Below, piece by piece: positions 32,098 through 59,417 of a stretch of 64,000 nucleotides of DNA. The first letter of the stretch is position 1, and the number at the start of each line of letters is the position of its first letter. The notes beneath the pieces were generated by a model. It had not been told where the DNA came from, ran no database searches, and saw nothing but the letters and a program-made list of their open reading frames with translations. The position numbers and the translations under genes were made by a program. Source of the DNA: Podarcis liolepis (Eukaryota); the NCBI GenBank assembly GCA_965112155.1, contig OZ218103.1, one strand, 5' to 3'.

Positions 32098-32560
32098 TTA
32101 ACTAGAGGAAACACATCTTGGAAACACAAAATGAAGTTGGTAACTAGTACATCACCAATTAGACCCTGTTTTACAAGTAGAATCCAGCAATAGCTTGCCT
32201 GGTGGGGCAGAGCCATGACAATAGCTTCCTGGCAGTAGAGTCACTGTAACATACTGGGAGGAAGAAAGGCAAGGCAAGAATGAGGTCAAGGCTCTGTGGA
32301 AGCACTGGTGGAAGCAGCCTAGACACCACCCCATCTTTCCCCTACCTGGTAAACTTTAGCAATTCCATTACCAGATGTGCTGCAGTTTTGCTCCACTGAG
32401 TGAGCCACTCCTGGTGGAATCAGCTATTTCTGCACCCAATCCTCCCCTCTCCCCAAAAGCCATTGGTTCATTCTCCCCTCTTTGATGGGAGGAGTGAGTG
32501 ACCAGGTCAGACAGACAGTCTGAGGGAGGCACCAATTGCTTCTGACTGACTCTCATCCTG

Positions 32561-34036
32561 CTTGGGCTGTGCGGATCAGCTGGCGAGGGTCTTTACTAAG
32601 ATCTTCAATAAGTCCTTACACCAGTCTATTGTCCCACCCTGCCTGAAGTCGTCAACTATTGTCCCTCTGCCTAAAAAATCCACAATCAGTAGTTTGAATG
32701 ACTATAGACCAGTTGCACTGACTCCAATCATCATGAAGTGTTTTGAGAAACTGGTGCGCCGTCACATTATTTCCTGTCTTCCATCAACTTTTGACAACTA
32801 CCAGTTTGCATACAGAGCAAATAGATCCACAGAAGACGCCATCAATACCACTCTCCATGCTGCTCTGTCCCATCTGGAGCAGCCGGGGAGTTATGTGAGG
32901 CTGCTGTTTGTGGATTTTAGCTCTGCTTTTAACACTATCCTCCCCCATAGACTGGTGTCCAAGCTAGAGGCGATTGGACTCTCCAACTCCACCTGTCTCT
33001 GGGTTTTGGATTTTTTGTCAGAACGTTCCCAGAGGGTTAGAGTAGGGTCACACATGTCCACAGCCCTTAGCCTTAACACCGGCTCACCACAGGGTTGTGT
33101 GTTGAGTCCCCTGCTCTACACTCTCTATACGTATGACTGTACAGCCATCTATTCCAGCAACAAAATCATCAAGTTTGCTGATGACACTACGGTGGTAGGG
33201 CTCATTTCAGGAGGGGATGAGTCCGCCTATCGGGACGAGGTGGAGCGGCTCTGTGTTTGGTGTGGAGAGAACAATCTGGCTCTTAATACGGCTAAGACCA
33301 AGGAACTGGTGGTGGATTACAGGAAAAAAAAGGCAGACATTCAGCCCTTGTATATCAACGGGGAACGGGTGGAGAGGGTGGCGGAATTCAGGTTTTTGGG
33401 AGTAGCTATCGATCAGGGCATGACTTGGAGCGCACATACCACTGCTCTGGTGAAGAAGGCCCAGCAGAGAATTTATTTCCTCAGACTTTTAAAGAAGAAC
33501 AATCTGAGTGAGAGACTGCTGGTGTCCTTCTACCGAGGCTCCATAGAGAGCATTCTTACATACTGTATTTGTGCTTGGTTCTCCAGTTGTACAGCTAGGG
33601 AGAGGAAGGTGCTCCAGAAGGTCATAACCACAGCCCAAAGGATTATTGGTCATCCTCTCCCATCTTTGGAAGAACTGTACGGTTCCCGTTGTCTTAGGAA
33701 AGCAAATAACATCCTGCAGGATTCATCTCACCCGGGACACGGTCTGTTTGCACTACTGCCTTCTGGCAGGAGATATAGAAGCATCAAGTCAAAGACAAAT
33801 AGACTGAAAAACAGTTTCTATCCAAGAGCTGTGGCCTTTTTGAATGCTGTAACTCGATAGTGTGACCTGGGAGTTTGATGGGTGTGGTGTGGGTGTGGCT
33901 GGAATGTGGTTTGTTTGGTTGTTGTTGTTGTTTTGCTTTTGTTGTTTTAAGGGATGGCATCCAATTTCGTTGCACTTTGTGCAATGTTGCACTTGTGTAA
34001 TGACAATAAAGAATCTATTCTATTCTATTCTATTCT
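32561..34036 (+). mobile_element. Rex1/Babar non-LTR retrotransposon, 5'-truncated, young
   Basis: Uninterrupted RT frame; 3' hairpin TTGCAC-TTT-GTGCAA; AATAAA at 34005; (CTATT)n tail; possible TSD TCCTG (32556-32560 / 34037-34041). Confidence 0.92.
32562..33860 (+). CDS. Rex1/Babar reverse transcriptase, partial ORF lacking the N-terminal endonuclease (TE-encoded)
   Basis: 432-codon open frame with [33 protein letters not shown] and FLGV motifs, plus C-terminal [11 protein letters not shown]; the TTG start is the truncation point. Confidence 0.9.
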
Positions 34037-38110: not shown

Positions 38111-38599
38111 AGTCCTTTCACATAAATGACTGTTTACACACTGGAAACAGACCTGTCTGAAATAATTGTCCTGCGTGTGCTTATTTTCTACTCGTGTACA
38201 TAATTGTGTAGAGCAAAGGGGATCAACATTTCATACCATGTGGGTCGAAAGAGTACTTCAACACAGAACCCACAGGCCGCATACAGCCTTGGGAGGGATG
38301 AGTGAGCCCAAAATTTGATGCCCCCCAGCCCTCATGCTGCCTTTCCAAAACTGGATAAGCCAGGTGCTGAGCTTTTTTTTGGGGGGGGAGGTGCAAGGCT
38401 CTGGAAGAGTCCTAGACCCCTCTCACCTTCTTCCCAAACCTGGGAAGAGCCTAGCTAGTCTTTGGGAAGAAGGGGGAGGACTCTAGGACCCTGTCAGAGC
38501 ATTCACACCTCCTTCCCAAAGCCCACCTAATCACAGCTACTTATGGATGAATGATGGTTTATTTACCAAATGGTATTTTAAATATCCTGGCAGTGGGGA

Positions 38600-39073
38600 A
38601 ACATCACCTTGCCAACAAAGGTCCGTATAGTTAAAGCCATGGTTTTCCCAGTAGTGATGTATGGAAGTGAGAGCTGGACCATAAAGAAGGCTGATCGCCA
38701 AAGAATTGATGCTTTTGAATTATGGTGCTGGAGGAGACTCTTGAGAGTCCCATGGACTGCAAGAAGATCAAACCTCTCCATTCTGAAGGAAATCAGCCCT
38801 GAGTGCTCACTGGAAGGACAGATCGTGAAGCTGAGGCTCCAATACATTGGCCACCTCATGAGAAGAGAAGACTCCCTGGAAAAGACCCTGATGTTGGGAA
38901 AGATTGAGGGCACAAGAAGAAGGGGACGACAGAGGACGAGATGGTTGGAAAGTGTTCTTGAAGCTACAAACATGAGTCTGACCAAACTGCGGGAGGCAGT
39001 GGAAGACAGGAGTGCCTGGCGTGCTCTGGTCCATGGGGTCACAAAGAGTCGGACACGACTAATGACTAAACAA
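38600..39073 (+). mobile_element. Bov-B (RTE) LINE 3' fragment
   Basis: ORF 38609-39103 PTKVRIVKAMVFPVVMYGSESWT...WRALVHGVTKSRTRL is the canonical Bov-B C-terminus. Confidence 0.95.
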
Positions 39074-39219
39074 GTAACTGAAATAATCCTCTACATTTGG
39101 TGACAGCCTTAGTGTGATAACAGAGTGGGTCTTGTACAAATTGGTGACAGAGTTGGTGGGGTGATATAACTCCTCTATAGCTTTCATGGGACCACTGTGG
39201 GAAACCTGTAAGAACATTA

Positions 39220-51671: not shown

Positions 51672-52284
51672 TGTGCTGGTCCTGTGGGCTAACCAAGAGG
51701 CGAGGTCCGAGTCCAGTCCGAGGTCGAAGGTGCAGTATGGAGGCAGTCCGTAAAAGTTGAAGCTGGATGCAGGGCAGGTAGTCGAGTGAGGTCAGGAGCT
51801 CTGGCAGGATAGCAGGACAGGGTTCAGGCAGGAACTAACAACCAACAAAGTTGCTCCCGCAACTAGGGACCGAGGCTGGCTGCTTTTATCTGCCCCGAGG
51901 CACAGGGTGACCCCCATCATCAGGTGACTCGCCTCTCCTGGCCTGGAGGCGAGCACTCCTCCTGCGGGAACTTAGTTCCCTCCGCCTCTGTGCCCTGAGC
52001 CTCTGCAGCTCAGGAGAAGCTGGAGGGTTACAGGACCCAGAGGCAACCTCAGCTTCCCCTGACGGGCCGAGAGTGGAGCACCTGCAGGCAATGGGTCCTC
52101 CATCCCCTCAGGAGCCAGAGCAGACTCACCTGGTGCCTGCACCTGAGGATCCAGCACAGGTGAGGACCCTTCAGGCTCAAGCTCAAGCCCCAGCCCCGGC
52201 TCAGCTGGTTCTGAAGGCGGGGACTCCTGTGCAGGCTGGGATTCCTCAGGTTCAGCATCCAAATCCAAATCCCAGGCCATCACA
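51672..52284 (-). mobile_element. Solo LTR (Gypsy- or ERV-like) carrying a U3 ORF
   Basis: TGTGATGGCC...CCAGCACA termini on the minus strand; GATAAAA TATA-like box; homologous to 58721-59312; TSD imperfect (GTATG/GTGTA). Confidence 0.8.
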
Positions 52285-55480: not shown

Positions 55481-55507
55481 ACTACCGTATTTTTTGTTCT
55501 GTAAGAT

Positions 55508-55707
55508 NNNNNNNNNNNNNNNNNNNNNNNNNNNNNNNNNNNNNNNNNNNNNNNNNNNNNNNNNNNNNNNNNNNNNNNNNNNNNNNNNNNNNNNNNNNNN
55601 NNNNNNNNNNNNNNNNNNNNNNNNNNNNNNNNNNNNNNNNNNNNNNNNNNNNNNNNNNNNNNNNNNNNNNNNNNNNNNNNNNNNNNNNNNNNNNNNNNNN
55701 NNNNNNN
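55508..55707. other. Assembly gap (200 N)
   Basis: Run of N, preceded by TACCGTATTTTTTG, a probable Tc1/mariner MITE end. Confidence 1.
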
Positions 55708-56162
55708 ATTGTGCTCCTGTTGTAATAACTTTGATGAAAGGCAGCATAGAAATATTATCCTCTCCGGGAGGATTTGACACCCAATTAACCTCTGATTTTG
55801 CATTGAAAGTTCTGGCAGGTGATATTTCGAATAAGTCCAAACCCTAAATAGAACCTGTTTCTTCCCGCAGCACTACTTTATATGTTTTCAGGATATAGCT
55901 CTGAACTGGACACGTACAAATTTTCTAGAGCCCTGGGCATTTTCATTTCCAGTTAAGTACAGCACCAAAAAGAAAAAAAGCGAAATCTTCATGCATTCTC
56001 AGTATGTGGTTTATAAGAAGCGATTAATCTTCAGGAAGTGGAAGCCAGCAACTGTGTACCAAAATCAGTTGAGATTTGAGTTTATTTTCCTTACCATCCT
56101 GTTGTTGTTGAATTGATCCTTACATTCTCATTTTTTAAAACTTGCGTAGATAAGACATTTGA

Positions 56163-57575: not shown

Positions 57576-58720
57576 CCTCATGCCCTTTCTTAAAAATGAA
57601 AATCAGGGATGTAGTCAGGAAGTACCACTGTGGTTGTGCAGACTCATGGGGACATCCTGAACCTGGAGGCACATCTTCAGAAGATCCTCTCCCTAGCTAG
57701 ATGTCTGGGGGAGAACAAAACCCTGGTTTTGTTATCTGGAAGGAAACGACTAGTGGGAGATGTATTACTTTTTCATTGTCATACAAAGTGCAAGTGGTGG
57801 CTGAGCAGACTATAGAATTTGCTAGATTTCTAACAATTCATAATCTCTAGTTAGTGTGTATGTATTTGTCAAAAACAAGGGATGCCTAAATACAAATAGC
57901 AGATCAGCCTCTCCACATCCCACCTGCAGCCTTATTCTAGATATTTGCAGAGAAAAACACTAGTGTTTGGCTACTGGCTGAAAGGCTTGACCCACACAGA
58001 TTTCTTACAATAACACAGAGTGGAGAAACTAGGGCAAAGATACTTCCGTAACCTTCAGGGACTGGGGTGTTTTTGATGGTCTTTTCTGACTCCAGTGCAA
58101 ATTTCAAAATGCTTCTTCTAAAGCCTTGTAAGAGCTGTGAAGGAAGTGGAGCATACAACGGAGATAATAATTTGCTTTTATTTATAGCACCTGGACTCCC
58201 AGGGAGATAAACGCTTAAGATAGTCAAGTCCGGTTTGTCCATGCCAGGAGAGCTGGACGCAACAAGCAGGATTCAAAGAAAGTTATTTTGCTTCTCAAGT
58301 GCTTGACAGCCTAACTATCCCCACAGTCCCAAGCAGGTGGTTTACAGAACACTTGGTGGCCACTTGGTACACCCCAGCTATCCAGCTCCTGATCAATAAC
58401 TGCCTCTGTTTTGTTCTGAGGTATTGTTTGTTGGCGTGGGAGTTTTTGATGGTTCTGTCTGAAAGCGTTCATATAAGTTGTTTGATTCAGGTAAATGTGC
58501 ATTTCCACAAGAAAGGCATATCAGGTGCCATTGGAACAGAGGAGTCAGACGACTGGTCCATCTAACTCATTTACCAGCCACAATGGCAGTGACCCTCCAG
58601 GGTTTCTGACTGGGGACAATCCTAGTCCTTCCTGAAGATGCTGAGACTTGAACCTGGGACTTTCTGCATGCAAAGCAGGTGCTCCCTTCCCCCCATATGT
58701 ATCCTCCATTTTGTACACAG

Positions 58721-59312
58721 TGTGATGGCCTGGGACTCGGAACCAGAGGAGACTCAGTCTGCACCGGATCCTTTGCCTCAGGTATCACCTGAACAAAGTC
58801 TGGGGCTTGATCCTGAAGAGTCCCAGTCTGCACAGGTTCCCCTGCAATAAACACCAGCTGAGCCGAGTCAGGGGCCTGAGCCTGCCCTGGCTCCAGATGC
58901 GGGGATTACCTCGTTGCCTTCACCTGGGCCATCACTTACAGCTGCCCCACTACCGGTTTGGTCAGGGGAGGCTGAGGCGGCCCCTGGGTCTAGTAACCCA
59001 CTGCCATCTCCCGAGCTGTAGAGACTAAGGTCTGAGAGAAGGAGAGACCTGAGTACTTGCAGGAGGAGTGCTTGCCTTCAGGCGAAACAGGGAGCTGAGT
59101 TGCTGGGGGATCAGGACCGCTACCTCAACAAAGATAAAAGGCTGTTGGACCCCGCCCCAGGTTGTGGGAGCAACACTGCTGTATGCCAGATCCTGCACCT
59201 GTCCTTGCCTGGTTTCCTGCCTCGTGTCCTGCCTTGGCCCTGTTGGACTGACTCATAGCGGAACCTTCAGATTCTGGACTGTGCTTCACAGGTAACCCTG
59301 TGGCCCAGCACA
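58721..59312 (+). mobile_element. Solo LTR (Gypsy- or ERV-like) carrying a U3 ORF
   Basis: TG...CA termini; perfect 5-bp TSD CACAG; GATAAAA box; homologous to 51672-52284. Confidence 0.88.
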
Positions 59313-59417
59313 CACAGCCTGGATAACATTTGATAGGACAATTATGTTTTTCTGGTGTATCTGTGACCCAAAGGACATTCACCTTTATTGCTTTTAAATG
59401 GGAGAGATAGTATACAG

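Follow-up and report, generated by a model that had tools for sequence, protein, structure and literature searches.

A selected, U3-coded Pol tail with a candidate HMGN-like arginine motif in a lizard Tf1/sushi-group chromovirus

Two solo LTRs and their parent element

The DNA analysed here is a 64,000-nt stretch of the Podarcis liolepis genome (contig OZ218103.1 of assembly GCA_965112155.1; termed the window). It carries two solo LTRs of one retrotransposon family, copy B on the plus strand and copy A on the minus strand, which are about 70-77% alike. Within the 64-kb window, no internal gag-pol region was found. The features of the two copies are as follows.

58716..58720, plus: left 5-bp target-site duplication (TSD) CACAG, flanking copy B
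58721..59312, plus: copy B, a solo LTR of subfamily B of a Tf1/sushi-group chromovirus, 592 nt, with ends TGTGATGG...CCAGCACA
58725..59100, plus: decayed U3-coded Pol/integrase tail of copy B, with stops at 58848 and 59019
59061..59078, plus: RRSARL (HMGN-core-like) site of copy B, which reads RRSACL
59134..59139, plus: TATA-like ATAAAA of copy B, its putative function suggested by a constant distance of 30 nt from the predicted R start
59164..59173, plus: predicted R start of copy B; the corresponding decamer of full-length copies shows complementarity to the PBS, as in Tf1-type self-priming
59313..59317, plus: right 5-bp TSD CACAG, flanking copy B
51672..52284, minus: copy A, a solo LTR of subfamily A, 613 nt
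51946..51963, minus: RRSARL motif of copy A, unaltered as read from the sequence

The tail frame of copy B passes from an acidic, proline-rich linker into a basic segment, and its RRSACL results from CpG decay of a CGC codon. Copy A has a decayed TSD, of which three of the five positions remain, and is frameshifted between the ATG at 52280 and the motif at 51963, which are 317 nt apart. Elsewhere, the plus strand of the window holds a 436-aa stop-free frame (32550-33860) matching both RVT_1 and ALKBH8_N; it is a fragment of a young non-LTR retrotransposon that we take to be Rex1/Babar-like. A 173-aa frame on this strand (38582-39103), with no Pfam family over the cut-off, is presumably similar to the 3' terminal part of a Bov-B/RTE LINE. 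A run of N, possibly an assembly gap, occupies about 55500-55850.

Both copies belong to an abundant family. In the 1.57-Gb genome, each window copy gave more than 2,000 first-look candidates, and 3,226 exact matches to the 15-base LTR start were counted genome-wide. Of the 60 best matches examined, 58 had scorable ends; in these solo copies, a 5-bp TSD is exact in 40/58 and has at most one mismatch in 56/58, whereas a 4- or 6-bp TSD occurs in 0/58. The TSD-bearing repeats, which also have the TG...CA termini and short inverted repeats usual for LTRs, are solo LTRs. In total, 131 distinct copies were sorted into subfamilies B (48 copies), A (40) and C (38), leaving five singletons. Two same-strand copies 5.4 kb apart (L031), considered as a candidate single element, are in fact separate solo LTRs. 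At the start of contig 1 (G000:C1:1-2,640,000), 30 exact LTR starts fall within the first 2.63 Mb, a density of ~11 per Mb compared to ~2 per Mb genome-wide; this crowding near the contig end points to an insertion or retention bias.

Full-length elements were recovered from subfamily C, the LTRs of which are ~70% alike to window copy A. A search for a purine-tract pattern before the LTR start returned 397 overlapping matches, and most of the 100 listed have a common polypurine tract. At all 20 loci examined (subfamily C), gag-pol lies between two LTRs ~5 kb apart. The LTR pairs of the same element differ by 0-4 per 560 nt, and subfamily C is therefore young. Pfam matches in one natural copy run in the order gag, protease, RVT_1, RT_RNaseH, Integrase_H2C2, rve, SH3_Tf2-1 and Chromo, and the parent element is classified as a Ty3/Gypsy chromovirus. 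The top protein match is a Podarcis muralis model (98%), and the nearest proteins are lizard, frog and fungal Tf2-like polyproteins. The 30 of 150 genome matches examined belong solely to the same family, with no other chromovirus family among them. Genome pattern searches found neither a full-length A-type element nor an A-type copy joined to pol DNA.

The PBS is complementary over 10 nt to the LTR decamer in 20/21 full-length copies. This decamer starts 30 nt after ATAAAA wherever the hexamer is intact, and is present within one mismatch in 43/48 B, 36/40 A and 38/38 C copies. A self-priming PBS layout is a trait of the Tf1/sushi group, as described in an excerpt of PMC6317226, and the element fits this group by its predicted layout. 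By this layout, the frame in question and the tail stop codon both lie upstream of the predicted U3/R border.

Among the young lineages, the coupling of gag to pol varies (L092-L111). Some have separate gag and pol frames that overlap at a GGGAAAC heptamer, which we take to be a PEG10-like -1 slip site, while others have one fused gag-pol frame of 1558-1564 aa. Head-to-tail tandem elements with LTRs in common also occur, at a spacing of 5,005 nt (G000:C2:104475366-104485403; L094, L109).

Selection on the U3 frame and its continuity with pol

The first-pass annotation of the window had read copy B in one frame from the ATG at 58725 through the stops at 58848 and 59019, and had argued from a hand alignment with copy A that this frame evolved under purifying selection. 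The ATG, both stops and the quoted translation are all present. Recounting the 44 aligned codons (58962-59093 versus 52062-51931, minus) reproduced the 35 nucleotide differences, 11 at first, 4 at second and 20 at third positions; 17 codons are identical and 13 differ synonymously, as reported, and 14 differ non-synonymously. The conservative D/E, S/T and R/K replacements and both CGC/TGC pairs were likewise verified. The excess at third positions is significant over the 44 codons (chi-square p=0.004; binomial p=0.003), the final two of which fall where a global alignment opens a gap. Because the copy A frameshift lies upstream of this block, the block represents the part of the two copies that is in register.

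The dN/dS ratios were estimated over 35 gap-free codons by comparing natural copies pairwise and subtracting the within-group divergence. The sample comprises 36 A, 40 B and 38 C copies (114/126), 12 having been dropped for indels or a weak anchor. In the pol frame, the net dN/dS is 0.11 (0.04-0.23) for A-B and 0.20 (0.07-0.49) for B-C, which bears out the proposed purifying selection, and 16/24 differing A-B columns are at the third position. The accompanying expectation that dN/dS would be below 1 in this frame only held for these two comparisons, but not for A-C, where the value of 0.51 (0.18-1.56) is not significant. The two other sense frames gave 0.9-3.1. The antisense frame with common third positions gave 0.24 (A-B), a value that we take to mirror the sense frame.

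The ATG and the motif are separated by 264-370 nt, and 106/124 copies have a spacing divisible by three, in keeping with the frame integrity that had been expected; the modal lengths are 264, 282, 312 and 348 nt, and the modes of all groups are multiples of three. Within the old subfamily A, dS and dN are equal (both 0.067), and within the young subfamily C they are 0.062 and 0.011, respectively. Since the periodicity is seen between subfamilies and is absent within old A, it arose in active lineages and not during post-insertion decay. The active lineages kept the U3 pol frame under purifying selection.

It might be objected that chance, or CpG effects in non-coding LTR DNA, produced the periodicity, as the first reading used 44 hand-picked codons in a CpG-rich block. 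Over 24 CpG-free codons, however, dN/dS remains 0.10 (A-B) and 0.17 (B-C), with 0.29 for A-C, whereas the other sense frames are near or above 1. The codon-sized length changes and the stop-free continuity with pol also count against this objection, which we regard as hardly credible.

In 15/20 full-length copies, a stop-free pol runs from the chromodomain through the polypurine tract into 108-116 codons of the 3' LTR, and the frame of the LTR ATG is that of the chromodomain; in the remaining five, a G tract just upstream differs in length. A wider set of 57 distinct junctions contains 42 in frame, a count that is partly score-biased, since part of the set was ranked by a query favouring frame-shifted copies. 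The other 15 are shifted by the length of the G tract just upstream of the polypurine tract and are without the tail (L092-L111, L186-L215). Within one lineage, where 32 copies were compared, the shifted ones lie scattered instead of grouping as a clade, a pattern that repeated slippage or errors in assembly would produce. A B-type copy (L115/L153) has retained 1.7 kb of pol, 75% alike to C, with its junction in frame with the chromodomain; a second B-type copy with pol DNA (L118) is out of frame. In addition, four UniRef models (P0001, P0176, P0177 and P0178), which are automated gene models and do not amount to a description of the tail, terminate in it. By sequence continuity, the U3 frame almost certainly represents the C-terminal end of Pol/integrase. 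Over the whole tail, dN/dS between C lineages is 0.28-0.47, compared to 0.08-0.12 for integrase/pol, so the linker is looser than the enzyme.

The notion of an LTR-borne coding segment thus stands insofar as the repeat is an LTR and its U3 holds a frame selected in active lineages; the segment is, however, predicted to be a C-terminal extension of Pol/integrase instead. The suggestion of an undescribed separate gene or system is not upheld, as automated UniRef Podarcis models already carry the segment as the end of Pol. An ordinary pol terminus, which the first-pass annotation had named as the outcome that would remove novelty, comes close to what was found, yet the tail is long, selected and bears an HMGN-type motif.

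A gene of its own, translated from the LTR ATG and expressed from solo LTRs or upstream transcripts, is very improbable. The ATG does open the frame four bases into the LTR, and the automated models P0022 and P0068 start there. This ATG is nevertheless a terminal-repeat codon in the pol frame, ~390 nt upstream of the predicted transcript start, and the old A solo copies decay neutrally, with stops and shifts. As a separate observation, the Podarcis gene models P0022, P0180 and P0068 join the LTR tail to gag or to a family-3 GPCR domain; these models are probably mis-predictions and possibly cases of LTR exonisation.

Raw RNA reads labelled as coming from a related species were mapped at 88% likeness, with the strand assumed. 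Along the pol end, run X23 has a depth of 0.7-5 on the presumed sense strand, including 2.5 in the bin before the LTR, and runs X24 and X21 give patchy cover. Positions 6586-6768 of L095, which follow the predicted R start (~6553), are covered almost wholly in the presumed sense direction in X23 and X24 (15-36 versus 0-2). Much of the U3 cover stems from solo copies inside other transcripts, and no sharp transcript start was called in the mapped reads. With the strand assumed, the RNA cover fits low transcription of whole elements.

Tail composition and the RRSARL motif

The tail is divided into two parts of contrasting composition. In L095, the first 74 residues comprise 18 acidic residues, 14 prolines and a single basic residue, whereas the last 42 residues include 12 basic ones (K/R). 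The RRSARL motif is found near the tail end in 38/38 C copies and occurs once in the 1564-aa polyprotein. Its CGC codon has decayed to C or H in 11/39 A and 20/47 B copies; the first-pass annotation missed the motif because this CpG decay had altered it in copy B. Shuffling of the tail produced RRSARL in 1 of 10,000 trials and RRSxR in 8 of 1,000, although the p-value is weakened by the motif having been spotted after the fact.

The same string opens the core motif of the HMGN proteins, RRSARLSA. Excerpts of PMC12487698 and PMC13347269 report a cryo-EM placement of RRSAR on the H2A-H2B acidic patch, and binding of Dsup (RRSSRLT) and yeast Dot5 (RRSARIAT) via related motifs. The lizard tail possesses the first six residues of the HMGN core, including the anchor arginines of RRSxR; however, residues 7-8 differ (KA in C copies), and the predicted motif ends a retrotransposon polyprotein. 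From the motif alone, an acidic-patch tether is a tentative assignment that we hold at somewhat under an even chance.

Database searches with the tail revealed no Pfam family and no PDB sequence match, and the ESM Atlas gave no usable match. Protein searches returned Podarcis models only (5/636 candidates), and RRSARL stands behind a chromodomain in 1/138 database proteins with a chromo-like word, namely the Podarcis one. When tail residues 72-112 were modelled in complex with H2A and H2B, the score was 0.02, which carries no weight either way. The Rhineura model P0053 has a chromodomain, a similar junction, an acidic linker and a different basic end string, with no alignable tail and no RRSARL when compared as a protein model. 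The tegu (Salvator) protein model P0078 also shows an acidic extension past the junction. The acidic-tail layout may thus be wider in squamates, and the RRSARL tail motif appears lacertid so far.

The basic segment can be accounted for in another way. The tail would still be translated as the end of Pol, but its arginine-rich part would serve as a nuclear-localisation or general DNA/RNA-binding signal, and the likeness to HMGN would be incidental. Basic C-terminal import signals occur in retrotransposon integrases. The concentration of K/R residues at the tail end agrees with such a role, as do the arginines upstream of RRSARL, which are kept as well as the motif itself, and the acidic-then-basic layout of Rhineura P0053, which lacks RRSARL. 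Import or nucleic-acid binding would have no need of an exact S-A-R-L, yet this string is common to three subfamilies with dS up to ~0.9. We consider this account rather unlikely, if worth weighing.

A second account concerns the DNA instead of the protein: the tail would be a loosely constrained translated linker, and the invariant 17-bp block under RRSAR would be a promoter element of U3, such as an enhancer or a site for a DNA-binding factor. This block lies 74-77 nt before the TATA-like hexamer, and 5/6 motif columns have the same codon across A, B and C. The codon differs in 9/16 other residue-invariant columns, but the excess of identical codons in the motif is not significant (Fisher p=0.16). 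Moreover, the surrounding 35 codons vary mainly at third positions, unlike the effect expected of a DNA site. The dS is lower in the tail than in pol in 5/5 C pairs and is about half in three of them (0.16 versus 0.35 for L095-L100). Together with the kept motif codons, the depressed tail dS suggests an added DNA-level promoter constraint that overlaps the tail coding. As a full explanation in place of a working protein motif, the promoter element is distinctly unlikely.

We favour the reading that the integrase likely keeps the selected U3-coded pol tail and is likely anchored to nucleosomes through RRSARL, and we place the two parts together at about even odds. In the arrangement that we propose, the genomic RNA would begin with R of the 5' LTR; U3 would then be present a single time, at the 3' terminus, and translation would yield the tail solely as the last part of Pol. 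The acidic, proline-rich linker would act as a flexible spacer that lets the motif reach the acidic patch, where the RRSARL arginines would insert between H2A and H2B, and the Y-W-Y chromodomain would meanwhile read a methylated histone tail. Solo copies, including both copies in the window, would yield no protein. A bolder version, which we put forward with more reserve, is that a vertebrate retrotransposon may have evolved, within its LTR promoter, an HMGN-mimicking arginine anchor for the end of its integrase and, with the chromodomain, a two-point nucleosome reader. The literature searches revealed no earlier account of an integrase tethered to the acidic patch in a retrotransposon.

Relation to known elements and significance

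The lizard element shares with the Tf1/sushi-group chromoviruses (GyDB V-clade: Sushi-ichi, Amn) the gag-PR-RT-RH-IN order, an SH3 and a chromodomain, and a 5-bp TSD. They both have a PBS of the self-priming type, without a tRNA match pattern. Its Pol, however, enters the 3' LTR by 108-116 codons; in several fungal and metagenomic relatives, 50-75 residues follow the chromodomain tryptophan before the protein ends.

Continuation of Pol into the 3' LTR is already known from plant chromoviruses. According to excerpts of PMC3059260 and PMC3605345, the plant CRM group A codes a CR targeting motif where Pol enters the 3' LTR, and Pol likewise extends into the 3' LTR in several Beta Bingo elements. 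An LTR-coded integrase end, the layout trait of CRM group A, is thus found in the lizard element, which is nonetheless not a CRM member. CRM elements have the CR motif instead of a chromodomain and a tRNA-Met PBS, whereas the lizard element has a canonical chromodomain and a self-complementary PBS. Its Y-W-Y (group I-like) chromodomain lies upstream of the polypurine tract, with the LTR-coded motif added, and CRM differs in both clade and host.

Excerpts of the published accounts also describe an arginine anchor by which foamy virus Gag tethers to chromatin (PMC9040877), and a C-terminal segment of Ty1 integrase that targets integration (PMC10050235). By analogy, a short linear motif would bring the integration complex to chromatin in these systems as we propose for the lizard tail. 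The foamy virus tether resides in Gag, and Ty1 integrase binds Pol III; to our knowledge, U3 encodes neither tether, and neither is combined with a chromodomain. Retroviral U3 accessory genes of the nef/sag type have their own start codon and a separate spliced or LTR-driven message, whereas the lizard frame is continuous with pol and its ATG lies upstream of the predicted R start. The literature search, outside which lay Repbase, Dfam and subscription papers, found no such tail or motif reported for a vertebrate element. On present sequence comparisons, it looks new for a vertebrate element to combine a canonical chromodomain with an acidic linker that is coded in U3 and terminates in RRSARL.

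If the motif does not bind, the tail would be a long but ordinary Pol terminus. The dual coding in the LTR promoter bears on LTR dating and on gene models that absorb solo LTRs. If the motif works, the HMGN acidic-patch motif, known so far from HMGN, Dsup and Dot5, would extend to mobile elements, and the tail would be a vertebrate parallel to both the foamy virus Gag tether and the plant CR motif. It would also provide a small peptide for testing the insertion-site choice of animal chromoviruses.
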